Shown here in pieces: positions 18,912-57,127 of a stretch of DNA of 64,000 nucleotides. Numbering within the stretch: the first letter of the stretch is position 1; each line of letters starts with the position of its first letter. A program made the translations under genes and the position numbers. The notes beneath the pieces were generated by a model that saw only the letters and a list, made by a program, of their open reading frames with translations, had not been told where the DNA came from and searched no databases. Where the stretch lies: assembly GCA_900551295.1 (NCBI GenBank), contig URVJ01000007.1:20560-84559 (forward strand), given 5' to 3'. The DNA is from an uncultured Eubacteriales bacterium (GTDB lineage: Bacteria > Bacillota > Clostridia > Oscillospirales > CAG-382).

Positions 18912-20762
18912 ATGAAGAAAAAGTTTTTCCTTCTGCAAAAAAATAAAGACGGCTTTACACGAACGCAAAGCATAATATATGATTTTTTTATGCCGCTGAT
19001 GCTTGTAATATCAGCCGTGATATGCGGAGTTCTGTCGCTGATGCTTGCATACGGGCAGTATGAAAGAGTGCTGTTTTACAGCTATTTTTCAAATCCGTTT
19101 ATATTGTTTCTCAACATTCTGCCGACGGTGCTTATGTCGCTTGTTTTGTGGGGACTTTGCGGCAGGGCTTGGATCGCAAACCTTGTTTCGTCCGTCATAA
19201 CTCTCGGATTTACGTCGGCAGACTACTATCTTCTCAAATTCCGCGACGATCCGCTGATGTTTTCCGACGTAATGTATGTAAGAGAGGCGGCGCAGATTAA
19301 TTCAAGATACGATATGACTCCCGGTAAGCGTATGATATTTGCATATGTGATTTGTATTGTTCTTACCGTACTTCTGTTTTTCTTTGCACGCAAGAAGCCC
19401 AAAGCCGGAATACGGATACCCGTGACGGTTCTTGCTGTGCTCTTGGCATTTGTTCCGGTCAAAAATCTTTATACTGACGCCTATATTTATGATGTAAAAA
19501 CGGCGAACTACGAATATATAAACCACTGGTCGTCAACGCAGAACTTTGTTTCAAAGGGCTTTGTATATCCGTTTCTTCACAGCGTATCCGACGCATTTCC
19601 GAAAGCTCCCGACGGTTATTCCGAAAAGGCGGCAAAAGAAATACTTTCCGCTTATACCGATTCGGATATACCCGAAGAAAAAAGAGTCGATATAATCGCG
19701 GTAATGCTTGAAGCATATAACGATCTTACGCTGCTCGGCGTTGACGGAATAGACCAAAGCGTTTATAAAGCGTACCACGATCTGCTTGACGAGTGCTATC
19801 ACGGACGCCTTGTGACAAATATCTTTGCCGGAGGCACCATCGATACCGAACGCGCGTTTTTAACGGGATATTCGACGCTCGGCAATTTCAGACACGATAC
19901 AAATTCTTACGTGCGCTATCTTGAATCGCAGAATTATTACGCCGACGGAAGCCACCCGTGCTACCGCTGGTTCTACAACCGCCTTAACGTGAATAATTAT
20001 CTCGGCTTCAAGAACTATTACTTCTACGAGGACTATTACAGCACGCTGTCGTCTACGATTGCCGTGGATTCGATAGTATTCCCGGAAATAAAGAATTTCT
20101 ATGACCGCGAAAAGGATTCGGGACAGAATTATTTCGGGTTTCATGTAACTTATCAGGGACACGGCCCGTACTCGGCTGAAAGTCTCGACTGGGTATCTCA
20201 GCCGGTGTTTTCAAACCCGGCAGTCGGAGAGGCTTCGTCTGTCATACTAAATAACTATCTCGGCTCGGTATCAAATACGGCGGAAAATATAGTAAACCTT
20301 GTAAATGAGCTGAAAAAAGAGGATAAACCCGTTTTGTTCGTATTCTTCGGCGACCATAAACCGTGGCTCGGAGACGGTAACAGCGTTTATAACGAACTCG
20401 GAGTTGATCTTGACGTGTCAGAGTACGACGGATTTATGAATTACTATTCCACTGAATACGCAATTTTTGCAAACGACGCCGCAAAAGAGCTTCTCGGCAA
20501 TGATTTTGTCGGAACGGGACCGACAATAAGCCCGTGCTTTTTAATGAATGAACTTTTTTCTGAATGCTCGTATGAGGGAAACGCGTATATGAAGTTTACA
20601 AACTACGTCAGAAGTTTGCTTCCCGTAATAAACAAAAACGGATTTATCGACGAGAACGGAAATTTCTACACCGACGAAGACGATCTTGATGAACAGCATA
20701 AAGAGGCTTTGCACAAGTTCAGAATTGTGGAAAAATACGTGTCGGATAACTTCTCAAAGTAA
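18912..20762 (+). CDS. LTA-synthase-family / sulfatase-like membrane protein
   Basis: Five N-terminal TM segments followed by an extracytoplasmic sulfatase-like domain (VMLEAYNDL, FFGDHKPW). Confidence 0.7.
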   Translation: MKKKFFLLQKNKDGFTRTQSIIYDFFMPLMLVISAVICGVLSLMLAYGQYERVLFYSYFSNPFILFLNILPTVLMSLVLWGLCGRAWIANLVSSVITLGFTSADYYLLKFRDDPLMFSDVMYVREAAQINSRYDMTPGKRMIFAYVICIVLTVLLFFFARKKPKAGIRIPVTVLAVLLAFVPVKNLYTDAYIYDVKTANYEYINHWSSTQNFVSKGFVYPFLHSVSDAFPKAPDGYSEKAAKEILSAYTDSDIPEEKRVDIIAVMLEAYNDLTLLGVDGIDQSVYKAYHDLLDECYHGRLVTNIFAGGTIDTERAFLTGYSTLGNFRHDTNSYVRYLESQNYYADGSHPCYRWFYNRLNVNNYLGFKNYYFYEDYYSTLSSTIAVDSIVFPEIKNFYDREKDSGQNYFGFHVTYQGHGPYSAESLDWVSQPVFSNPAVGEASSVILNNYLGSVSNTAENIVNLVNELKKEDKPVLFVFFGDHKPWLGDGNSVYNELGVDLDVSEYDGFMNYYSTEYAIFANDAAKELLGNDFVGTGPTISPCFLMNELFSECSYEGNAYMKFTNYVRSLLPVINKNGFIDENGNFYTDEDDLDEQHKEALHKFRIVEKYVSDNFSK

Positions 20763-20839
20763 AACACTTTAAGAAACTGTAAACAAAACGCCGCATTAAT
20801 GAATTATTTTAAATTTTTGTATTGATTTGCTGTTATGTG

Positions 20840-20868
20840 TTGACATATTCGGCTTTGCATAGTAAAAT
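20840..20868 (+). promoter_or_regulatory. Candidate sigma-70 promoter of the aro operon leader
   Basis: TTGACA-N17-TAAAAT. Confidence 0.55.
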
Positions 20869-20902
20869 ACTTTCATACACGAAAGAACACAGGTGACGGA
20901 TA

Positions 20903-21001
20903 ATGAAAATGTTTGATCTTATCAAAACTTATTTTTATTATTATTACGGCTTTGCTTTTAATACGGCAAGGTCTTTCGTCGTTGTGCCTTCGGCTGCGTA
21001 A
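20903..21001 (+). CDS. Candidate Tyr/Phe-rich leader peptide (32 aa) of the aromatic amino-acid operon
   Basis: AGGTGA RBS 6 nt before the ATG. Translation is MKMFDLIKTYFYYYYGFAFNTARSFVVVPSAA. Residues 10-19 contain 5 Tyr and 3 Phe. The ORF lies between the promoter and an intrinsic terminator immediately upstream of tyrA. It is too short for the ORF track. Confidence 0.5.
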   Translation: MKMFDLIKTYFYYYYGFAFNTARSFVVVPSAA

Positions 21002-21033
21002 CAAAAAAGCAGTACATTGTTGATGTGCGAAAG

Positions 21034-21071
21034 ACCGCGGTGATGAAAATTTCACTGCGGTTTGTTTTTTT
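21034..21071 (+). terminator. Intrinsic terminator (attenuator) in the aro operon leader
   Basis: ACCGCGGTGA-tgaaaatt-TCACTGCGGT (10 bp, one G-U) followed by TTGTTTTTTT, 45 nt upstream of the tyrA ATG. The 9-nt segment GGTCTTTCG (20970-20978, inside the leader ORF) is perfectly complementary to CGAAAGACC (21028-21036). That segment overlaps the 5' arm of the terminator. Confidence 0.7.
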
Positions 21072-21116
21072 GTTACAATATGATATGTGAAAATAAAAAT
21101 AAAGGGTGGTATAATT

Positions 21117-21962
21117 ATGACAGTGGGAATCGTGGGACTCGGACTTATAGGTGCGTCTCTTGCAAAGACAATAAAAAAGCATACGGACTTTGCGGTAATG
21201 GGATATGACATTTCCGAGGAAGTAATGGAATCGGCGCTAATCGACGGAACGATAGACGAGAGGCTTAATCTCGGCGGAGAGCATTGCGATATGATACTTG
21301 TCGCGCTGTATCCCGACGACGTCGTGGATTTCGTAAGCAAAAACGCAGATCTGTTTAACGATACGATAGTCATCGACTGCGGCGGCACAAAGAAAAAGGT
21401 CTGCGACAATCTTTTCCCGATTGCGCGCGAGCATGGATTTACCTTTATCGGCGGACATCCTATGGCAGGTATAGAAAAATCCGGATATGCCGCGTCAACC
21501 GACAGTATGTTCGACGGCGCGTTTATGATTCTCGTGCCCGACGAAGGCATTGATAAGATGAAACTTGACTACGTAAAGATGTTCTTTATCTCGATAGGCT
21601 TTCACAGAATAACGCTTACTACCGCAAAGGAACACGACGAGATAATAGCGTATACCTCTCAGCTTGCGCACGTCGTGTCAAGCGCATATGTAAAAAGCCC
21701 GACGTCGGTAAGAAACCTCGGATTTTCCGCAGGCAGCTTTAAGGATATGACAAGAGTTGCGTTCCTTAACGAACCTATGTGGACTGAGCTGTTTTTCCAG
21801 AATAAAGAATTTCTGTTAAATGAAGTTGATATTTTCATAGAGAATATGAAACAGTACCGTGAGGCTCTTGCAAACCTTGACAGAGATAAGATGATGTCGC
21901 TGCTTGCAGAGGGCAAGAAACAGAGAGTAGCCGCGTGGACTGCGGTTTCGCAAAAGAAATAA
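21117..21962 (+). CDS. tyrA: Prephenate dehydrogenase
   Basis: MTVGIVGLGLIGASLAK (Rossmann fold), GGHPMAG, HDEIIAYTSQLAHV. ATG at 21117 follows GGGTGG. Confidence 0.9.
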   Translation: MTVGIVGLGLIGASLAKTIKKHTDFAVMGYDISEEVMESALIDGTIDERLNLGGEHCDMILVALYPDDVVDFVSKNADLFNDTIVIDCGGTKKKVCDNLFPIAREHGFTFIGGHPMAGIEKSGYAASTDSMFDGAFMILVPDEGIDKMKLDYVKMFFISIGFHRITLTTAKEHDEIIAYTSQLAHVVSSAYVKSPTSVRNLGFSAGSFKDMTRVAFLNEPMWTELFFQNKEFLLNEVDIFIENMKQYREALANLDRDKMMSLLAEGKKQRVAAWTAVSQKK

Positions 21963-21988
21963 GAATAATTTTTACCCGGAGGCAAATC

Positions 21989-23245
21989 ATGACCGTAACG
22001 CTTGATCCAAAGACTATACTCGGAGGAACGCTGGATATAATTTCCTCAAAATCGGATATTCACCGCTGCATAATCTGTGCGGCATTTGCGGATAAGGAGA
22101 CAGAAATAGAATTCTGCGGACTTTCAAAGGATATACTCACAACCGTCGAATGCGTCGAAAAGCTCGGAGCAAAGGCAGAGTTCAACGATAAAAGAGTAAA
22201 GATATATCCTGCCGATGTCTCGGCAATACGTCAGGGACTTGTGCTCGATTGTCACGAGAGCGGAACTACCGCACGTTTTCTCTTGCCGATAGCGGCGCTT
22301 GTGTGCAGAAACTGTACCGTTACCGGAAGCGGAAGACTTCCCGAAAGACCGTTCAGCGCGCTTTGCAAGTCGCTTGAAGAACACGGAGCGCAGTTTTCGT
22401 CGGAAACTCTGCCCATAACCGTTAATAAGCCTAACGGCGGCAAAGGCACATATAAGATACCCGGAAATATCAGCTCTCAGTATGTAAGCGGACTGCTGCT
22501 CATGCTTGTTCTCGCAGGCGGCGGAAAGGTTGAGCTTACGACTCCGCTTGAGTCTGCCGGTTATGTAGATATGACGGTGTATACGCTAAAGCGTTTCGGC
22601 GTCGATGTAACTTGCGAAGACGGAAAATATACCGTGCCGGAAGGACAGAAGTTTGTTTCTCCCGGAAGAATAAAAGCGCAGGGCGACTGGTCAAGTGCGG
22701 CGTTCTGGCTGTGTGCCGACGCACTCGGTGCAAACGTGTCGCTTAAAGGACTTGACGTAAACTGCCCGCAGGGCGACAGAATAATACTTGATTATCTTGA
22801 AAAATTCGGTGCGGATAAGAAAATAAACGGCGATACGGTGTCTGTCGAGGCCGCGCGCTTAAAGGCAATAGAGATAGACGCAAAGAACTGTCCCGATCTT
22901 GTTCCCGTGCTTGCGGTTACGGCATGCGCCGCAAAAGGCACTACAATAATAAAAGGCGCTGCAAGACTGCGGCTTAAAGAAAGCGACAGAATAGAGTCTA
23001 CCGTAAAGATGCTGAGAAGTCTCGGAGCAGACGCAGACGCACTTCCCGACGGCATGACAATACGCGGAAAAGGATACCTTGACGGCGGCGAGGTTGACGG
23101 CTGCAACGATCATCGTATCGTAATGTCCGCTGCGGTCGCGTCGCTTATCTGCCGTTCCCAGGTGGTCATAGACGGTGCGAGAGCCGCCGAAAAATCCTAT
23201 TCGACGTTCTTTAACGATTTCGATAAGCTGACTTTGAAAAAATAA
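21989..23245 (+). CDS. aroA: 3-phosphoshikimate 1-carboxyvinyltransferase (EPSP synthase)
   Basis: SKSDIHRCIICAAFA, ESGTTARFLLP, LRLKESDRI, DHRIVMSAAVA. ATG at 21989 follows GGAGG. Confidence 0.95.
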   Translation: MTVTLDPKTILGGTLDIISSKSDIHRCIICAAFADKETEIEFCGLSKDILTTVECVEKLGAKAEFNDKRVKIYPADVSAIRQGLVLDCHESGTTARFLLPIAALVCRNCTVTGSGRLPERPFSALCKSLEEHGAQFSSETLPITVNKPNGGKGTYKIPGNISSQYVSGLLLMLVLAGGGKVELTTPLESAGYVDMTVYTLKRFGVDVTCEDGKYTVPEGQKFVSPGRIKAQGDWSSAAFWLCADALGANVSLKGLDVNCPQGDRIILDYLEKFGADKKINGDTVSVEAARLKAIEIDAKNCPDLVPVLAVTACAAKGTTIIKGAARLRLKESDRIESTVKMLRSLGADADALPDGMTIRGKGYLDGGEVDGCNDHRIVMSAAVASLICRSQVVIDGARAAEKSYSTFFNDFDKLTLKK

Positions 23246-23263
23246 TTTCGGAGAAAGAAAACT

Positions 23264-24337
23264 ATGAATACATTCGGCGAAAAAATCAGAGTTACCGTGT
23301 TCGGACAGTCCCATGCTCCGGCAATAGGCGTGACGGTTGACGGACTTCCGTGCGGAGTGAGCATAGACCAAGAAGAACTTTATAAATTCATGCTGCGGCG
23401 CGCACCCGGAACCTCAAATACGTCCACATCGCGTAAAGAGGCGGACAGACCCGTTATTGTTTCGGGACTTAACGATAAAGGACTTACCTGCGGCGCTCCG
23501 CTTACCGCGCTCATTTATAATTCCGACGCACATTCAAAGGACTATTCCGAACTGTTTATGCGTCCGCGTCCGTCGCACGCTGATTTTCCGGCATGGATAA
23601 GATACGGAGAAAACTACGATATACGCGGCGGAGGACAGTTTTCCGGCAGACTTACCGCACCGCTTTGCATTGCCGGAGGAATACTCATGCAGATACTCAA
23701 AGCAAAGGGAATACATATCGGTGCGCATATACTTTCGGTAAACGACGTAAGGGACTTCGGATTTGACATGGCAAATGTTTCGGCAAATGAGCTTGAAAAC
23801 ATAAAGTCAAAGAATTTTCCGACTATTGACGACGCTGCCGCAGAGAGTATGAAGGAAAAAATACTTTTTGCAAAGCAGAATCTCGATTCCGTCGGAGGTG
23901 TTGTGGAGTGTGCGGTCGTCGGACTTGAACCGGGACTCGGCGAGCCTGAGTTTTGCGGAATTGAGAACGCCGTTTCACAGGCGGCTTTTGCAATACCTGC
24001 GGTAAAGGGAATAGAATTCGGTTTAGGCTTTGAAAGTACGCTGCTTTACGGCTCGGAGAACAATGACGAATATGCTTTTGACGGGCAAAAAACTGTAACG
24101 CTTACAAATAATGCCGGCGGTATCTGCGGCGGAATGACAACGGGTATGCCGATAGTTTTCAGAACGGCGTTCAAACCTACACCGTCGATTGCAAAGGCGC
24201 AGAACAGCGTTGACCTTGCGTCGCATGAAAATATAAAGCTTGAAATAAAGGGCAGACACGATCCTTGCGTTGTCGTAAGAGCAGTGCCTTGCGTTGAGGC
24301 GGCTGCCGCAATAGCGATAAGTCAGTTTGTACTTTGA
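23264..24337 (+). CDS. aroC: Chorismate synthase
   Basis: FGEKIRVTVFGQSHAPAIGVTVDGLP, RPSHADF, GGGQFSGR, GRHDPCVV. Confidence 0.95.
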   Translation: MNTFGEKIRVTVFGQSHAPAIGVTVDGLPCGVSIDQEELYKFMLRRAPGTSNTSTSRKEADRPVIVSGLNDKGLTCGAPLTALIYNSDAHSKDYSELFMRPRPSHADFPAWIRYGENYDIRGGGQFSGRLTAPLCIAGGILMQILKAKGIHIGAHILSVNDVRDFGFDMANVSANELENIKSKNFPTIDDAAAESMKEKILFAKQNLDSVGGVVECAVVGLEPGLGEPEFCGIENAVSQAAFAIPAVKGIEFGLGFESTLLYGSENNDEYAFDGQKTVTLTNNAGGICGGMTTGMPIVFRTAFKPTPSIAKAQNSVDLASHENIKLEIKGRHDPCVVVRAVPCVEAAAAIAISQFVL

Positions 24338-24340
24338 TAT

Positions 24341-25504
24341 ATGGGAGAATTTAAAGACATGGAGCTTTCGGAACTCAGAAAACAGATAGACGCGATAGAT
24401 GATGAACTTGTATCGCTGTTCTTAAAAAGAATGGACGTATCGGGCGAGGTCGCAAAGGCGAAAATGCAGAGCAATACCGCCGTTATGGACAGCGGCAGGG
24501 AACGCGCAATAGTCTCGCGCCTTACAAAGGGACTCGACGACGATACCGCAAACTATGTGTCGGTGCTGTATTCGACGATATTTGAAATAAGCCGCGCAAA
24601 GCAGAGAAAAATGCTCTCTCACGACACAAAACTTGCCGATGAGATAAAGGAAGCAAAGCTTTCGACCGACGAGCTGTTTCCGTATGCCGCCGACGTTGCG
24701 GTTCAGGGCGTTGAGGGTGCATATTCCCAGCACGCCTGCGACAGACTTTTCGTAAGACCCGATATAACCTATACCGAAAACTTCAAGGACGTCTTTAAGC
24801 TTGTCGATTCCGAAAAGTGCAGATACGGCGTCGTTCCGATAGAAAACAGCCTTCACGGCTCTGTCGGCGAGGTATACGATCTGCTTAAAGAATATAAAGA
24901 TAAGATTCATATAGTGAGATGCGTGAGAATACCGATATATCATTCTCTGCTTGCCAAGAAAGGCGCTCAGCTTTCGGATATAAAAAAGGTGTATTCACAC
25001 AGCCAGGCGATAGGGCAGTGCAGCGAATTTCTCGCGTTGCACCCCGATATTGAGGTGAATGTCTGCAAGAATACTGCGGCAGCCGCAAAAATGGTAGCCG
25101 AAAGCGACAGAGGAGATATTGCCGCAATTTCGTCAGCCGACTGCGCAGAGCTTTACGGACTCGGAATACTCAAAACCGATATACAGAACAGCGATAATAA
25201 CCATACGCGCTTTATCTGCATATCAAAAAAATTAGAAATATATCCCGGTGCGTCAAAAATAGGCATAATGTTCACCGTAAAGCATAAAGCCGGCAGCCTT
25301 TTCAATATGCTTGCGCGCTTTGCGTGCCTCGGAGTAAACCTCACAAAGCTTGAGAGCCGCCCCATAAAGGGCAGGGATTTTGAATTCATGTTCTATGCCG
25401 AAATGGATATATACGGACTTTCGCCGGCACTTTTGTCATTCCTTTGCGAGCTTGACGACAGACCTGAAGAATTTGTATTCTTGGGCAATTATTCGGAAAT
25501 ATGA
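24341..25504 (+). CDS. pheA: Bifunctional chorismate mutase / prephenate dehydratase (P-protein) with ACT domain
   Basis: N-terminal CM_2 helix (LRKQIDAIDDELVSLFLKRMDVSGEVAKAK), a PDT domain (VAVQGVEGAYSQHA...IENSLHGSV) and the ACT motif TKLESRP. Confidence 0.9.
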   Translation: MGEFKDMELSELRKQIDAIDDELVSLFLKRMDVSGEVAKAKMQSNTAVMDSGRERAIVSRLTKGLDDDTANYVSVLYSTIFEISRAKQRKMLSHDTKLADEIKEAKLSTDELFPYAADVAVQGVEGAYSQHACDRLFVRPDITYTENFKDVFKLVDSEKCRYGVVPIENSLHGSVGEVYDLLKEYKDKIHIVRCVRIPIYHSLLAKKGAQLSDIKKVYSHSQAIGQCSEFLALHPDIEVNVCKNTAAAAKMVAESDRGDIAAISSADCAELYGLGILKTDIQNSDNNHTRFICISKKLEIYPGASKIGIMFTVKHKAGSLFNMLARFACLGVNLTKLESRPIKGRDFEFMFYAEMDIYGLSPALLSFLCELDDRPEEFVFLGNYSEI

Positions 25505-25531
25505 CGTTTTTTATATAAGGGGCGATTTGTT

Positions 25532-26797
25532 TTGATAACATACGGACTTTGCGGAAAAACACTTAAACACAGCTATTCAAAGCTGATACACGAAAAACTC
25601 GGAAACGGCGAATACAGACTTCTTAATCTCGAAAAAGACGAGTTTTACGAACTGCTCGAATCGCGTTCCTTTAAAGCCTGCAACGTGACTATTCCGTACA
25701 AAAAGGACGCATACAGCCTCTGCACCGTGCTTTCAAAAGAGGCGCAGAGCATAGGCAGCGTAAATACCGTCGTCAATAAAAACGGGGTGCTTTACGGATA
25801 TAATACCGACTATGCGGGCTTTGAATATATGCTGCGCCGTGCCGGAATTACGCTTGAGAATAAAAACGTCATAATACTCGGAACGGGCGGCACAAGCCTT
25901 ACGGCACAGGCAGTCGCAAAGGACGGTGCGGCAAAGAGCATAACTGTCGTTTCGAGAACGGGAAAAGTTAATTATAACAATGTGTACGATAAGACCGATA
26001 CCGAGGTAATAATCAATACGACTCCTGTCGGAATGTATCCGGATAACGGCAGATGCGCCGTCGATGTTTCAAAATTCCCGAAACTTTGCGCGGTGGTTGA
26101 CGTAATCTATAATCCGCTCAAAACAAAAATTCTTGCCGACGCGCAAAAACTCGGCATAAAGAATACCGGAGGACTGCCGATGCTCGTATATCAGGCAGTA
26201 AAGGCGCATGAACTTTTCTTTGACACAGAGGTTCCTGCCGATGTTCCCGAAAAGATACTCTCAGAATGTCTGTTTGAAACGGCAAATATCGTACTTGTCG
26301 GAATGCCCGGCTGCGGAAAGACAAGTATCGGCACGGAGATTGCCAAAAAGCTCGGACGCGTGTTCCTCGATACCGATAAGTTTGTTGAGCAAAGCGGTCT
26401 GACAATACCCGAAATATTTGAACGCTACGGCGAAAAAGATTTCAGAAACCGTGAGACCGAGGCTGTCAAAATGCTTACCGCACTTTCGGGAAAGGTAATA
26501 GCAACCGGCGGAGGCAGTGTGCTGGATAGTGAAAACGTCCGAATGATGCACCAGAATGGAATTGTAGTTTATATCAAGCGCCCTCTTGATAAGCTTGCGA
26601 CGGACGGCAGACCTTTAAGCGACGGCGGAATTGAAAAGCTGCAGAAACTGTTTGAGCAAAGGCGCGAGGTTTACCAAAATGTAAGCGATATCGAGGTCGA
26701 AACCGACGGAGATATACAAAAGTGCGCCGAGAATATAATTGACGGCGTAAAAAAGAATATCGCGGTTCTCTGTCCCGGGAACGCCGCGGAGGAGTAA
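25532..26797 (+). CDS. aroE/aroK: Fused shikimate dehydrogenase (N) / shikimate kinase (C)
   Basis: AroE motifs NVTIPYKKDA, NTDYAGF and GTGGTS, then the Walker A motif GMPGCGKTSIG and ...ATGGGSV of shikimate kinase. TTG start. Confidence 0.88.
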   Translation: MITYGLCGKTLKHSYSKLIHEKLGNGEYRLLNLEKDEFYELLESRSFKACNVTIPYKKDAYSLCTVLSKEAQSIGSVNTVVNKNGVLYGYNTDYAGFEYMLRRAGITLENKNVIILGTGGTSLTAQAVAKDGAAKSITVVSRTGKVNYNNVYDKTDTEVIINTTPVGMYPDNGRCAVDVSKFPKLCAVVDVIYNPLKTKILADAQKLGIKNTGGLPMLVYQAVKAHELFFDTEVPADVPEKILSECLFETANIVLVGMPGCGKTSIGTEIAKKLGRVFLDTDKFVEQSGLTIPEIFERYGEKDFRNRETEAVKMLTALSGKVIATGGGSVLDSENVRMMHQNGIVVYIKRPLDKLATDGRPLSDGGIEKLQKLFEQRREVYQNVSDIEVETDGDIQKCAENIIDGVKKNIAVLCPGNAAEE

Positions 26798-26802
26798 TTA
26801 AA

Positions 26803-27237
26803 ATGAAAATACTCGTAATAAACGGCCCGAACATAAATATGCTCGGCATAAGAGAAAAGAATATCTACGGCACAAAGAGCTATGCGGATCTCTGTGAAAT
26901 GCTTGAAAAGAAAGCAAAAGACGAAAACTTTGAAATCAAGCTTTTTCAGTCAAACCATGAGGGCGATATAGTCGATGAAATACAGAGCGCGTATCAAAAA
27001 TACGACGGTATAGTAATAAACCCTGCCGCGTACACCCATACAAGCGTCGCAATACTCGACGCGCTCAAAGCTGTGTCTGTTCCGGCAGTAGAGGTTCACA
27101 TCTCGGACGTTGATTCAAGAGAGGATTTCAGGCAGATCTCCTACGTTTCACACTACTGCTTTAAGACGATCAAAGGCGAAGGTTTTGACGGATATATTCA
27201 CGCGATAGACGAGATAGCAGCGTATATAAAAAAGTAA
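26803..27237 (+). CDS. aroQ: Type II 3-dehydroquinate dehydratase
   Basis: MKILVINGPNINMLGIREKNIYG, FQSNHEGDIVDEIQ, INPAAYTHTSVAILDA. Confidence 0.95.
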   Translation: MKILVINGPNINMLGIREKNIYGTKSYADLCEMLEKKAKDENFEIKLFQSNHEGDIVDEIQSAYQKYDGIVINPAAYTHTSVAILDALKAVSVPAVEVHISDVDSREDFRQISYVSHYCFKTIKGEGFDGYIHAIDEIAAYIKK

Positions 27238-27296: not shown

Positions 27297-27326
27297 CTTT
27301 CGCGGCACATTTTGCCGTGCTTGCTT

Positions 27327-29396
27327 TTACTTTTTGCCGTTTTCTTCGGGCGTCGGGAAGATTACGAGAAAGCTCGATTCTCCGAAACGTTCGCTGAGAT
27401 TTAAGAAACCTTTTTCGTCAGCAGTGCAGGGTTCTTCCGAGGTGTATAAACCGTCTGAAACAATGCGTGCCGTGTAGTTTTTGCCCTTTTCAAAGCCGCC
27501 GATCTTCAGTCTTACTGCGTCGGAACAGCTTGCCGTGACGATGACGTTTTCCGCACCGAATAAAAATCCGTATGAGTTGGTGCCGAAGCCAATGTTTTTT
27601 ATTCCGGCATATCCCGTGTATTCTCCGAGATTGGGATCTGCCGTGAGAACGCTGCCGTCGGTATCTGCGCCGAAAAGACCGTATACAGCCATGCTTGCCG
27701 CGGCTCCGCACTCGGCATATCCGTTTACCGAAAGCGTTTCGGGACTTGAGATAAGCAGCTTTCCGTCAGTATAGCAGGCGGCAAAGTCCGTAAAGCGGTT
27801 CAAAAAGCTCTTTTTGGAAATTTTCGCACGCGCGGCAAGGTCATAGTATTCCGTAACCAGCGACGCGCCGCCGTTCTGCCAGTATTTTCCGAAAGCCGCG
27901 GTCGAAGATAACGGGAAGTTGCCGTTTACATAGTCCCACCAGCTATCGCTTGCATTTATCGTGGTGGAACGCGGAGCAAATCCGAACGCATATATGTCTG
28001 CACCTGTCGAAGTGTCGCTTGAAACTTCGGTCTTGCCGTCAATCCACGAAAGAATTGCGTCCGACGTCTTTTTGTCGGCAATGCCGGAGCTTATTGCCTC
28101 AAGATTGAGGAAAGTAAAACCGAGATCGTGATAAGAACCCGACGCGTCCTTTGCGCCTGCGTATCTCGAAGAAGATTCTCTGAAGAATGTCTGATTTATT
28201 GCGGTTTTGTTCTTTTCCGCAACCGCAGAGTATTCGTCAGCCTTTTCGGGCTGTCCCATAAGCGTGTAAAGCTTTGCAAGGTCGTTCATTGCCTCGTTGA
28301 AAGCTATGTTGCAGTATGCGTCGAGATAACCGAAACGGTGATTGAACCAGTAGTTTGAGCCTGCGCCGTTGGACTCTCCGCTGTTGCTTTCGGTGAGAAT
28401 GTATACGAGTCCGTCAGCTTCGTTGAAGCGTATTCCGCCGCCGTTGAGGTCGTTCTTGTCAAAGTAGTAGTTTACGGCTTTCTCTAACTTTTCGAGAACC
28501 GTAAGACCGTTAGATACGTCGAGTTTCGGCACGCTTGTCGTGTCCTTTTCGTAAAGGAAAGACGTGTCTGCCTCCCAAAGCGTGATTTCGCACACGGCTG
28601 AGATAAATCTCGAATTTGTGTCGTAAAGATAAAATCCGTTCTTTTCGGACTTCATGGAGCTTTCCGACGACCATATGTAGCCGTTGGAGAATATCGGATA
28701 GTCGCGCAGTATCTGTTTAAGTTCGTTTATATAGGTTTTGTCGGAGTACCAGGCGTATCTCTTTGCCTGCCAGAGGAAAGTTGACGGATCCGAACTTGAT
28801 ACCGGGAGTGAGAGAGAGGGATTTTTTGACAGTGCAAAGTCGTTTATAAGACAGTCAGCCGCTGATAAAAGCGCGTTTTCGTCAGACGAGTAGATGATTT
28901 TTCCGCTGCTGCTGAATTCGTCATATGCCGTGAGTATGCTTTGATCGACAATGTTCGGATAAAGATCGGGTTTCTTTGTGATTTTCTTAAATGCCGAAAC
29001 AAGAACCGCGATAACCGCGATCACTACTGCCGCAAAGCCGAGTATTATTGCCCATCCGCGTACAAGTCGCTTTATCTTTTTGATTTTTGCGCGTTTAATG
29101 CGTTCTTTTCGTCTAAGTACCTCTGCGTGCTTTGCACGGCGTTCGCGTGCCAGCATTTCGTTCTGTCTGATAAGGTCGGTTTCGCCTGTCTGACCGAACT
29201 GCCGGCTGTTGCCGTTGGGACGTGAAAACTGCGTTCTTGCACGCGAAGTGTTTGGATTTGAGTTTTGAATTGTATTTATGTTAATGTCGCGGCGCATATT
29301 TTCGGGATTGCCGCCGTAGCCGCGCGGCATATCTGACGTATTTTGAGGGTTGTGACGCGGCTCGCCGTTTTTGCTGTAATTGCCGTCGTTCTGCAA
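27327..29396 (-). CDS. Hypothetical single-pass membrane protein: disordered basic N-terminus, TM, large extracytoplasmic domain of unknown function
   Basis: Long ORF with TM segment GWAIILGFAAVVIAVIAVLVSAF. A TTG at 29396 lies 9 nt after AAGGAGG, whereas the track start at 29420 overlaps that RBS. No motif was recognised with confidence; an (alpha/alpha)6-like glycosidase fold is only a guess. Confidence 0.6.
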   Translation of the reverse strand: MQNDGNYSKNGEPRHNPQNTSDMPRGYGGNPENMRRDININTIQNSNPNTSRARTQFSRPNGNSRQFGQTGETDLIRQNEMLARERRAKHAEVLRRKERIKRAKIKKIKRLVRGWAIILGFAAVVIAVIAVLVSAFKKITKKPDLYPNIVDQSILTAYDEFSSSGKIIYSSDENALLSAADCLINDFALSKNPSLSLPVSSSDPSTFLWQAKRYAWYSDKTYINELKQILRDYPIFSNGYIWSSESSMKSEKNGFYLYDTNSRFISAVCEITLWEADTSFLYEKDTTSVPKLDVSNGLTVLEKLEKAVNYYFDKNDLNGGGIRFNEADGLVYILTESNSGESNGAGSNYWFNHRFGYLDAYCNIAFNEAMNDLAKLYTLMGQPEKADEYSAVAEKNKTAINQTFFRESSSRYAGAKDASGSYHDLGFTFLNLEAISSGIADKKTSDAILSWIDGKTEVSSDTSTGADIYAFGFAPRSTTINASDSWWDYVNGNFPLSSTAAFGKYWQNGGASLVTEYYDLAARAKISKKSFLNRFTDFAACYTDGKLLISSPETLSVNGYAECGAAASMAVYGLFGADTDGSVLTADPNLGEYTGYAGIKNIGFGTNSYGFLFGAENVIVTASCSDAVRLKIGGFEKGKNYTARIVSDGLYTSEEPCTADEKGFLNLSERFGESSFLVIFPTPEENGKK

Positions 29397-29524
29397 GGTA
29401 ATTGTCCTCCTTGTTTTCAAACTTTACATTTATATTTTATCATAACGCATGAGAGTTTTCAACAGTATATTTAATTAATATATAAATTTTGCTCTTTTTC
29501 GGTTTCTTTTGTTGCTAATGCTCA

Positions 29525-29553: not shown

Positions 29554-29589
29554 ATGTTTGAAAATCGAATATTTGCACAATGTGTCGGA

Positions 29590-29785
29590 TATGCTGCATA
29601 AAAGGCATACCCGGTGAAAAGGGAACACGGTGTGAATCCGTGACGATACCAGTCGCTGTGTGCATCCGAAAGGAAAAATTTCCGTCGGTGAAAGCCGGTC
29701 ATTGGGAAACTGAGAAGGCAGGAGATTTTTTCGGCGCAGTTTGTCTGCGATAGGGTGTAAAGTCAAAAGACCTGCATTGATGCTT
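29590..29785 (+). promoter_or_regulatory. Cobalamin (B12) riboswitch aptamer
   Basis: Conserved core GGTGAAAAGGGAACACGGTGTGAATCCGTG...CCAGTCGCTGT...GCCGGTCATTGGGAA...AAGGC...AGTCAAAAGACCTGC matches the RF00174 consensus blocks from memory, including the B12-box-like AGTCAnAAGACCTGC 3' element. Confidence 0.8.
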
Positions 29786-30050
29786 TTTCGCACGTACCGC
29801 AAGCCGTTCCGGTGTCCGGCAGGGCAGGGAACTTAAAAAACGCTTGCTTTACAGAAAAAGTATTATCGGCTTCTTGCAGATTTTTTTCAGTATTCTTCAA
29901 GGGCTTTGTTGTTGCGCCGATTTGCAAAAGTCACAGGAATAGCTGCTGTGGTAAGTTTTGTTTGCTTGCCGCGGCGGCTTTTTTGTATGCGGCAAATTTA
30001 AGTTTGCAGTCAAATGATTGAATATAAAAAGGAAAGGAATTTCAAAAATC

Positions 30051-56584: not shown

Positions 56585-57127
56585 GTGAAGTTGGATAAAA
56601 CAGTGCTGTTCCGTATTTTAAGTATTGCAGCGGTTGCTGTTATCACCCTAAGCGTTTTCTTTGTAATCCGCCTTAACAACAATGATAATATAACATACAG
56701 TAAAATTGTTTCATATGTAAGCGGCAATTATGAGAAGCTCGAAAACTTCCCATATAGTGAAATTGAGAAAATCAAATCTTCAAATGACAGCCCTGAAATA
56801 AAAAAACAAAAGGAAGAAGAAATAATAAAAAGATATCTTGGGGAAAACACCATAGTTACAAGCGTTTATGCTTACAATGAAAACATTTTGCAATTTTATT
56901 GCGGTGGTTCCGGCTTTTTAGACGTAGGAACTTATACAGGATTTTATTTTTCACGCTATGATATGCCTTATGCATTTGAATTTAACACTCTTGAGTTAGT
57001 CGAAATAAGTCCCGGCGTGTTTGAGGGGCAAGATGAAGACGGTGCTCAACAAATACATGGAGGTCATAAAATACGCACGGAAAAAATCCGGGATAAGTGG
57101 TATTACTATATACAGTATTGGTATTGA
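56585..57127 (+). CDS. N-terminally anchored protein of unknown function (candidate orphan immunity protein)
   Basis: GTG start 5 nt after AGGGGGAG. TM anchor ILSIAAVAVITLSVFFVI. 180 aa. Confidence 0.5.
   Translation: MKLDKTVLFRILSIAAVAVITLSVFFVIRLNNNDNITYSKIVSYVSGNYEKLENFPYSEIEKIKSSNDSPEIKKQKEEEIIKRYLGENTIVTSVYAYNENILQFYCGGSGFLDVGTYTGFYFSRYDMPYAFEFNTLELVEISPGVFEGQDEDGAQQIHGGHKIRTEKIRDKWYYYIQYWY

Follow-up and report, generated by a model that had tools for sequence, protein, structure and literature searches.

A putative ribosome-mediated tyrosine/phenylalanine attenuator ahead of tyrA in an uncultured Clostridia bacterium

How is an operon for tyrosine and phenylalanine synthesis controlled when the DNA ahead of its first gene holds a promoter, a short Tyr- and Phe-rich open reading frame (ORF) and an intrinsic terminator? 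The question is raised by a 64,000-nucleotide (nt) stretch of DNA from an uncultured Eubacteriales bacterium (contig URVJ01000007.1, positions 20,560 to 84,559; the whole stretch is called the window here and is numbered from its first letter), in which such a leader precedes tyrA. T-boxes, TRAP or repressors are the usual explanation of aromatic operon control in Firmicutes. A first-pass annotation of the window had read the leader as a ribosome-mediated Tyr/Phe attenuator, and this central reading is backed here by a conserved ORF, by conserved pairings and by the lack of a match to any rival RNA family. From sequence comparison and folding models, the element is very probably a leader-peptide transcription attenuator that would sense charged tRNA-Tyr and/or tRNA-Phe and control tyrA-aroA-aroC-pheA-aroE/K-aroQ.

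The leader and its conservation in close relatives

The anatomy of a leader-peptide attenuator was complete in the window and its parts were in the correct order (Table 1). The promoter (TTGACA-N17-TAAAAT), the Shine-Dalgarno (SD) site and the 32-codon ORF lay exactly where the first-pass annotation had put them, as did the five Tyr and three Phe at residues 10-19 of the leader peptide; the five Tyr and one of the Phe occupy codons 10-15. The distance from the end of the -10 box to the leader ATG is 34 nt, and the leader transcript probably starts near 20875. The 201-nt leader folded with a z-score of -5.9 relative to dinucleotide shuffles.

In the four-region attenuator model the alternative pairings are 1:2, 2:3 and 3:4. 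The terminator (3:4) was present at the annotated site, with a stem of 12 bp rather than the 10 bp first described once the closing A-U and G-U pairs were counted (21032-21043 with 21052-21063); the stem has six G-C pairs and the loop is 8 nt. The 9-nt complementarity described earlier proved exact, GGTCTTTCG (20970-20978) being the complement of CGAAAGACC (21028-21036), which gives a 9-bp antiterminator (2:3). Its overlap with the 12-bp terminator stem is 5 nt (AGACC) and not the 3 nt given previously, and lies at the base of the stem adjoining the U-tract. A further hairpin, 1:2, had been missed. The three helices abut in the window as 1:2 (20948-20956/20965-20973), a middle helix of UUUCG (20974-20978) with CGAAA (21028-21032), and the terminator 3:4 (21033-21062).

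Close loci (L081-L093) were retrieved by looking up the exact proteins of TyrA homologues that are 58-79% identical. The nearest TyrA homologues were encoded by uncultured 'Clostridia bacterium' assemblies, in agreement with the Firmicute host proposed at first pass. A Y/F mini-ORF, whose lack of conservation the first-pass annotation had named among the refuting outcomes, was found in 11 of the 12 close-clade relatives fetched; homologous mini-ORFs of 19-32 codons were present in L081-L089 and L091-L093. All loci with a TyrA identity of 67-79% (11 distinct sequences) had a spacer of ~280-370 nt 5' of tyrA, and this spacer contained a TTGACA-N17/18-TATAAT-like box, an SD site, an ATG-started mini-ORF with an aromatic run and a terminator. 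These 11 relatives and the window made up a close-clade alignment of 12 sequences. In 12/12 of them TTGACA was separated by 17-18 nt from a TATAAT-like box, the end of the -10 box being 28-44 nt 5' of the leader ATG, and an SD-like GGAG, GGTG or GAGG preceded that ATG.

Conservation of the leader peptides (for example MKVLNSVTEYFYYFGFAFYWVRSFVVVPANA, MKICVFNQKYFYFYYGFGFYKTRSFAFCR, MNKNTMYFAYNFFYYGFAKR, MKTNNMNVHNFYFYYFIRK and MNFIGNKKAFYIYYGFVFTFFDKVFRCCAFAG in the relatives) was limited to the Y/F run and the G-F that follows it; length and the N- and C-termini varied. The run was kept in 12/12 sequences, and the changes inside it were Tyr/Phe codon swaps, which kept the amino acid class while the RNA sequence varied. 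Region 1 started at the first position of the codon directly after the aromatic run in 12/12 sequences, the run ending at codon 14-16. In region 2, AGGTCTTT(C/T)G was invariant as nucleotides in 12/12 sequences, and GACC of region 3 was also invariant. As the region 2 block fell in differing reading frames among the relatives, and beyond the stop codon in L087 and L091, its conservation is at the RNA level. The position of the leader stop codon ranged from 14 nt short of the end of region 2 to 25 nt past it, always 5' of region 3. The motif AGGTCTTTYG, the window's own sequence class, was restricted to the close clade. One relative (L092) had an HPr-like gene upstream instead of the sulfatase-family gene and retained the leader, which argues that the unit belongs to tyrA.

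Helix counts were made on this 12-sequence alignment (A2). The 1:2 helix (columns 62-70 with 83-91) was paired in 97% of cells, three of its pairs were doubly changed (G-C, G-U, A-U and others), and its covariation score was equalled by 0/500 shuffles. The 2:3 helix was likewise paired in 97% of cells, with one compensatory change (C-G to U-A) and several G-U pairs; the 3:4 terminator helix was paired in 92%, with two compensatory pairs. In a control with the partners slid by 1-3 columns, pairing was only 30-62% for all three helices. RNAalifold, with no structure supplied, returned the same three abutting helices (1:2, UUUCGU:ACGAAA and the terminator), and 8/26 of the pairs were compensatory.

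Table 1. Coordinates of the leader features and of the operon downstream, in window numbering
Feature	Position	Strand	Details
Sigma-A-type promoter TTGACA-N17-TAAAAT	20840-20868	+	-35 box 20840-20845, -10 box 20863-20868; scan score 11/12
SD site AGGTGA of leader ORF	20891-20896	+	six nt 5' of ATG at 20903
Leader ORF, 32 codons	20903-21001	+	encodes MKMFDLIKTYFYYYYGFAFNTARSFVVVPSAA; ATG start, from sequence reading
Putative regulatory codons	20930-20959	+	Y10 F11 Y12 Y13 Y14 Y15 (20930-20947), F17 (20951-20953), F19 (20957-20959)
Region 1, GGCTTTGCT	20948-20956	+	predicted 5' arm of 1:2 anti-antiterminator hairpin; covariation, RNAalifold
Region 2, GGCAAGGTCTTTCG	20965-20978	+	GGCAAGGTC (20965-20973) pairs with region 1; GGTCTTTCG (20970-20978) pairs with region 3
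Region 3, CGAAAGACCGCGGTGA	21028-21043	+	CGAAAGACC (21028-21036) pairs with region 2; AGACCGCGGTGA (21032-21043) is the terminator 5' arm
Region 4	21052-21071	+	TCACTGCGGTTT (21052-21063, terminator 3' arm) and U-tract TTTGTTTTTTT to 21071
Putatively regulated operon tyrA-aroA-aroC-pheA-aroE/aroK-aroQ	21117-27237	+	Pfam, NCBIfam
tyrA	21117-21962	+	prephenate dehydrogenase
aroA	21935-23245	+	
aroC	23264-24337	+	
pheA	24341-25504	+	chorismate mutase/prephenate dehydratase
aroE-aroK fusion	25532-26797	+	shikimate dehydrogenase and shikimate kinase, one ORF of 421 amino acids
aroQ	26803-27237	+	

Folding of the proposed switch and competing explanations

Folding was confined to the segment that begins with region 1 and ends with the terminator, in a free and in a stalled state. 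For the stalled state this segment was trimmed as far as 10 nt into region 1, about what a ribosome holding the last Tyr codon in its A site would occlude; a ribosome footprint reaches ~12-15 nt. The minimum free energy (MFE) fold of the free state had the 5-bp middle helix, a terminator that was full or nearly so, and 1:2, whose helix was full in 11/12 sequences and had 8/9 pairs in L088. In the stalled state, the MFE fold contained the full antiterminator (8-9 bp) in 11/12 sequences and was favoured over the best full-terminator fold by 0.6-9.1 kcal/mol. The terminator was then down to 6-7 pairs, the 3-5 pairs next to the U-tract having been lost (10 in one relative).

Two short blocks change partners in these folds: GGUC of region 2 can pair with GGCU of region 1 or GACC of region 3, and GACC can pair with GGUC or with GGUU of region 4. 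As modelled, the switch is a migration of the helix junctions by 4-5 nt among three stacked helices, with no wholesale refolding. The first-pass annotation had doubted that the antiterminator would disrupt the terminator. Stem pairs adjoining the U-tract are required for hairpin-driven release in intrinsic termination, and the small overlap would suffice because the pairs that are lost are those that adjoin the U-tract. The doubt is thus answered for 11/12 sequences with region 1 removed; when the whole leader is folded with region 1 masked, the window keeps its terminator (see below).

The mechanism that we propose begins with transcription from the consensus promoter. With Tyr and Phe plentiful, the ribosome would pass the run and reach the stop codon; hairpin 1:2 would form, or region 2 would still be covered by the ribosome, and GACC at the foot of the terminator would be left free, so that the full terminator would form and transcription would end at ~21071. 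With charged tRNA-Tyr or tRNA-Phe scarce, the ribosome would stall at about Y13 to F19 with its footprint over region 1. GGUC of region 2 would be released and the middle helix would grow to the 9-bp antiterminator GGUCUUUCG:CGAAAGACC, whereupon the terminator pairs nearest the U-tract would be lost and RNA polymerase would read through into tyrA. One detail of the earlier proposal, that a ribosome at the stop codon would cover GGTCTTTCG, has to be given up: the stop codon begins 21 nt past this stretch in the window and its position is not conserved, and it is the 1:2 hairpin that is predicted to block the antiterminator when translation is unhindered.

Several points weigh against this mechanism. 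The translation of the leader, the stalling of its ribosome and the regulation of read-through are inferences from the sequence, and the kinship of only 12 sequences inflates the shuffle statistics. The overlap between antiterminator and terminator is only 4-5 nt, and a 7-bp hairpin (GCGGUGA/UCACUGC) with GGUUUGUUU behind it is left over in the read-through state and, judging from the models, might terminate weakly or at some level. In L089 the 2:3 helix has two mismatches and the stalled-state MFE fold retains the terminator, and L090, whose TyrA is 58% identical, has a spacer of 86 nt and no leader. When the entire 5' leader was folded with region 1 masked, 8/12 sequences switched fully, whereas the MFE folds of the window and L086 retained the full terminator and those of L084 and L093 retained 10/12 terminator pairs. 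The window retained its terminator because its SD/start region pairs with region 2; folding solely the RNA 3' of the ribosome removes this ambiguity. Finally, the transcription of Bacillota, classed at phylum level as runaway and uncoupled, would hinder ribosome-dependent attenuation unless RNA polymerase pauses in the leader (PMC13323073). The 1:2 hairpin and the conserved UUUCGUUGUUG that follows it could be a candidate RNA polymerase pause signal.

Among the other explanations, the one that survives best is that the mini-ORF is translated and has another role, and we regard it as improbable. The product would be a small hydrophobic peptide, or the mini-ORF would be an upstream ORF tuning tyrA translation or mRNA stability, while the hairpin and T-run would be a constitutive partial terminator or stabiliser. 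The peptide is indeed hydrophobic; trans-acting leader peptides exist, such as peTrpL in the accessible part of PMC7298713; and a surviving 7-bp hairpin and a small overlap would allow a leaky switch. Conservation of only the Y/F run and the region-1-encoded G-F is, however, not how a functional peptide would evolve, and the three mutually dependent helices, kept with compensatory changes, also speak against such a role. As the attenuator terminator ends ~45 nt 5' of the tyrA SD site, that site is not sequestered.

A little less probable again is control by an RNA-binding protein or other trans factor (TRAP-like, or tRNA as in T-boxes) that would read the UAU/UUU repeats or the conserved blocks and set the balance between terminator and antiterminator, the mini-ORF being incidental. 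T-box and TRAP control is usual for Firmicute amino acid operons, and the triplet-repeat look of UAUUUUUAUUAUUAUUAC could in principle be that of a protein-binding array; the phylum-level classification as uncoupled (PMC13323073) leans the same way. The searches for known RNA families point elsewhere. At the gathering threshold, the sole Rfam match in the window was a cobalamin riboswitch and there was no match to the T-box family (RF00230), as the first-pass annotation had expected. At E <= 10, positions 20600-21300 gave no T-box and no leader family, the five matches there being at chance level (snoRNAs, Bacilli-1 and CrcZ; E 1.9-9.2), and none of the leader-peptide families of Rfam 15 (Phe, Trp, His, Leu, Thr and leu/phe) matched the window leader. 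A T-box, a riboswitch and a known leader family were therefore rejected for this leader. The search was able to detect a T-box, as in L033 (3919-4136), where it lies 3' of tyrA; this was the only T-box among 40 related loci and came from the 20 loci without a detected leader, and no Rfam family matched any leader in the 20 leader-bearing distant loci. Reading of 20875-21030 found no GAG and no repeated UAG, and so no TRAP-type array of (G/U)AG triplets 2-3 nt apart. Moreover, 12/12 close sequences and 46 distant loci have the run in the frame of an ATG that an SD site precedes, changes within the run swap Tyr and Phe codons and so keep the amino acid class while the RNA varies, and unrelated leaders in other lineages have only the aromatic codon run in common.

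Simple scans of the window gave 26 promoter-like sites against 18 expected and 25 terminator-like sites against 15 expected. A chance arrangement, an AT-rich intergenic TAT/TTT open frame beside the terminator of the upstream gene, is effectively refuted on sequence grounds: AT-rich DNA readily gives TAT and TTT codons and promoter- and terminator-like sites are frequent by chance, but the unit is conserved with covariation over 12 sequences, is separated from the upstream gene by a consensus promoter in 12/12, is retained ahead of tyrA in L092 despite a different upstream neighbour, and gave 46 coding-strand against 3 opposite-strand matches at the 80 distant loci listed.

Leaders in distant Clostridia and the surroundings of the operon

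The putative ribosome-mediated attenuator of the window may have a wider kin. With some hesitation, we lean towards seeing it as one branch of a large, uncatalogued set of Tyr/Phe attenuators with several unrelated RNA architectures, which would be the prevailing control of aroF-tyrA or tyrA in Clostridia labelled mostly Oscillospiraceae, Acutalibacteraceae and Ruminococcus. The matches listed by a TyrA profile search of genomes comprised 80 loci, each from a species-level genome, with TyrA 45-54% identical and labels of mostly Oscillospiraceae, Acutalibacteraceae, Ruminococcus or Clostridia. A distant unit was defined as an SD site, at least four aromatics with at least two Tyr in 7 residues, and a hairpin with a T-run within 190 nt. 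Among the matches listed, 46/80 loci had such a unit 5' of aroF-tyrA or tyrA on the coding strand, and 3 had one on the opposite strand. One extra plus-strand match was dropped for its downstream position.

Seven distant loci had a Tyr-run mini-ORF directly 5' of tyrA (peptides include MTNLFATNSYYYYYYFNN, MKQFNAATYHYYYYLTK and MKTFVITAEYYYGAAYYCRVCSAAL), each with a terminator and with pairings unlike those of the window. Many further Y/F mini-ORFs were found ~1.1-1.25 kb 5' of tyrA when whole loci were scanned, and the gene between leader and tyrA was DAHP synthase (aroF) in 5/5 loci checked. Examples of distant units are those of L003 (1837-1899), L005 (1759-1818), L009 (1796-1879) and L056 (1747-1824), with peptides such as MKRNIFAAEYFYFYFINKS; L056 is from the cultured [Clostridium] viride DSM 6836. 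The distant leader sequences were unrelated to that of the window, and their common feature was only the aromatic codon run.

Equilibrium folding of the distant leaders (43-48) left the terminator intact in the stalled state in 34/43, because these terminators are strong and GC-rich. In a nascent-arm test of the distant leaders, stalled exceeded free in 23 loci and the reverse held in 8, a weak signal. Inspection by eye showed alternative pairings in L002, L004, L029, L058, L062 and L064. From their sequences, the distant loci are claimed here as units of mini-ORF and terminator and not as a demonstrated antiterminator at each.

A broader mini-ORF scan covered both strands of 1.27 Mb (the window and 93 loci) for ATG-started frames with at least three Tyr in 6 residues and at least five aromatics in 8. 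It returned 57 matches, of which six were on the minus strand and at least two on the plus strand were spurious; the rest were on the coding strand, 5' of tyrA or aroF-tyrA. A motif match in L074 was put down to chance, as the region reads as coding on the opposite strand. A second Y-rich mini-ORF in the window (56963-57127) was also put down to chance, being the C-terminus of an ORF of 180 amino acids, and a separate scan of the window found no credible further leader-type ORF with a terminator. In three Acutalibacteraceae loci (L002 1-97, L029 1-119 and L058 1-95), the Tyr leader and tyrA lay ~200-250 nt 3' of the end of a 23S rRNA gene.

The operon of the window encodes Tyr and Phe synthesis, as the first-pass annotation had it, with tyrA, pheA and common-pathway genes identified by Pfam and NCBIfam. 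It is without aroB and aroF; a gene for dehydroquinate synthase (aroB) lay directly after tyrA in L085-L093. A terminator-like hairpin (27301-27319) follows the operon.

Two further sequence features were observed around the leader. A second promoter-like element, GTGAAA-N17-TATAAT preceded by TG, lay at 21087-21115, in the gap that separates the terminator from tyrA. The -10 box of this element stops 1 nt short of the tyrA ATG, and its spacer contains the tyrA SD site. The form [T/G]TGAAA-N17-TATAAT was present at the same place in 9/12 close sequences. A transcript starting ~7 nt past this -10 box would begin within tyrA codons 2-3. Additionally, A/T-rich blocks were present 5' of the -35 box of the leader promoter, namely CTGTAAACAAAAC (20777-20789) and TTAATGAATTATTTTAAATTTTTGTATTGATTT (20797-20829), and recurred by eye in close relatives as TTGTAAAC and AA(A)ATATTAACTTTTTGTAT. 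This segment (20777-20832) may act as an UP element, or as the operator of an additional control layer that relies on a protein.

Directly 5' of the leader, a sulfatase-family protein of 616 amino acids is encoded at 18912-20762 (+), with a match to Pfam Sulfatase and none in NCBIfam. Most close relatives keep this gene in synteny with the leader and tyrA, at times with an AraC-type regulator adjacent. On the other side, an ORF of 697 amino acids at 27327-29420 (-) is convergent with the aro operon and had no Pfam or NCBIfam match at E <= 0.001. The cobalamin riboswitch (RF00174) lies at 29563-29793 (+; 53.8 bits, E 1.4e-10).

Comparison with known attenuators

The first-pass annotation had called leader-peptide attenuation unusual for the clade. 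That part has to be qualified, since His, Leu and Phe leaders have already been reported or predicted in Firmicutes or their kin; as far as the accessible parts of these sources go, a Tyr-rich leader on tyrA or aroF appears to be new. In openly searchable full-text literature, subscription literature aside, no Tyr-rich leader before tyrA or aroF was described in Clostridia, and no leader peptide in the full-text literature found was described as sensing Tyr. What appears to be new here is both the Tyr-rich leader on tyrA/aroF operons in Clostridia and its commonness there.

If the proposed attenuators are real, ribosome-dependent attenuation would be routine in a phylum whose transcription is classed as runaway, the leader ribosome would in effect be coupled locally to RNA polymerase, and Tyr would be added to the amino acids that leader peptides sense. 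Analogous units occur in over half of the related genomes sampled, which would make this a principal mode of regulation for gut Clostridia that are abundant and mostly uncultured; it is absent from Rfam 15, and the mini-ORFs and terminators are currently unannotated. Such leaders would offer a natural test of transcription-translation coupling in Bacillota, and the junction migration of 4-5 nt among three stacked helices is a compact design which could serve engineered Tyr/Phe-responsive control.

Classical ribosome-mediated attenuators are those of trp, his and pheA in Proteobacteria (PMC9413887, PMC11802643). The window leader resembles the E. coli pheA leader (pheL) and the trp attenuator in its promoter-proximal SD site and short ORF with tandem codons for the end product, in its four regions with 1:2, 2:3 and 3:4 alternatives, in its intrinsic terminator before the first structural gene, and in the predicted masking of region 1 by a stalled ribosome. 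It has no homology to them in sequence or structure (no match to an Rfam leader family at E <= 10). Unlike in E. coli, Tyr is the dominant regulatory codon, 2:3 and 3:4 share only 4-5 nt with part of 2:3 persisting in both states, the position of the stop codon is not conserved in the close clade and does not place a ribosome over region 2, and the host is a Clostridia bacterium. Tyr and Phe T-box leaders likewise let transcription pass a leader terminator when charged tRNA runs low, but they bind uncharged tRNA directly and do not need translation, and the window leader contains no T-box.

Leader peptides of the same phylum come closer in lineage. 'Regular' His leader peptides have been described in bacilli of the Bacillus cereus group (Naville and Gautheret, PMC2965389), His leaders were predicted in Peptostreptococcaceae and Erysipelotrichales (Ashniev et al., PMC9413887), and a leucine-rich attenuator peptide has been reported in Staphylococcus aureus (PMC5794164, in the part accessible). 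These follow the same logic, ribosome-dependent attenuation where T-boxes are absent. They sense His or Leu, however, and control other operons in other lineages; in the accessible parts of these sources, none precedes tyrA or aroF and none is from Clostridia of the Oscillospiraceae/Acutalibacteraceae type.

A predicted motif in Acholeplasma, uORFC-13-1, lies 5' of aroF and comprises a promoter, a ribosome-binding site, an upstream ORF in which a U-run codes for Phe, and then an intrinsic terminator (PMC8632094). Compared by its description only, it shares with the window leader the arrangement of upstream ORF and terminator before a shikimate-pathway gene in a Firmicute-related lineage. It differs in having at least one Phe from a U-run and no Tyr run, and in being restricted to Acholeplasma and environmental sequences.

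The nearest functional analogue, by analogy and as far as the accessible account goes, is aroR of Corynebacterium glutamicum, which encodes a Phe-Tyr-Phe leader peptide 5' of aroF (Neshat et al. 2014, as summarised in PMC11802643) and is reported in that summary to respond to Phe and not to Tyr. It belongs to Actinobacteria and has three aromatic codons only; the resemblance to the window leader is functional only. On the same account, aroR and the window leader have in common mixed aromatic codons that attenuate, or in the window would attenuate, an operon with a shikimate-pathway gene, and the distant Y/F leaders, like aroR, also precede aroF.

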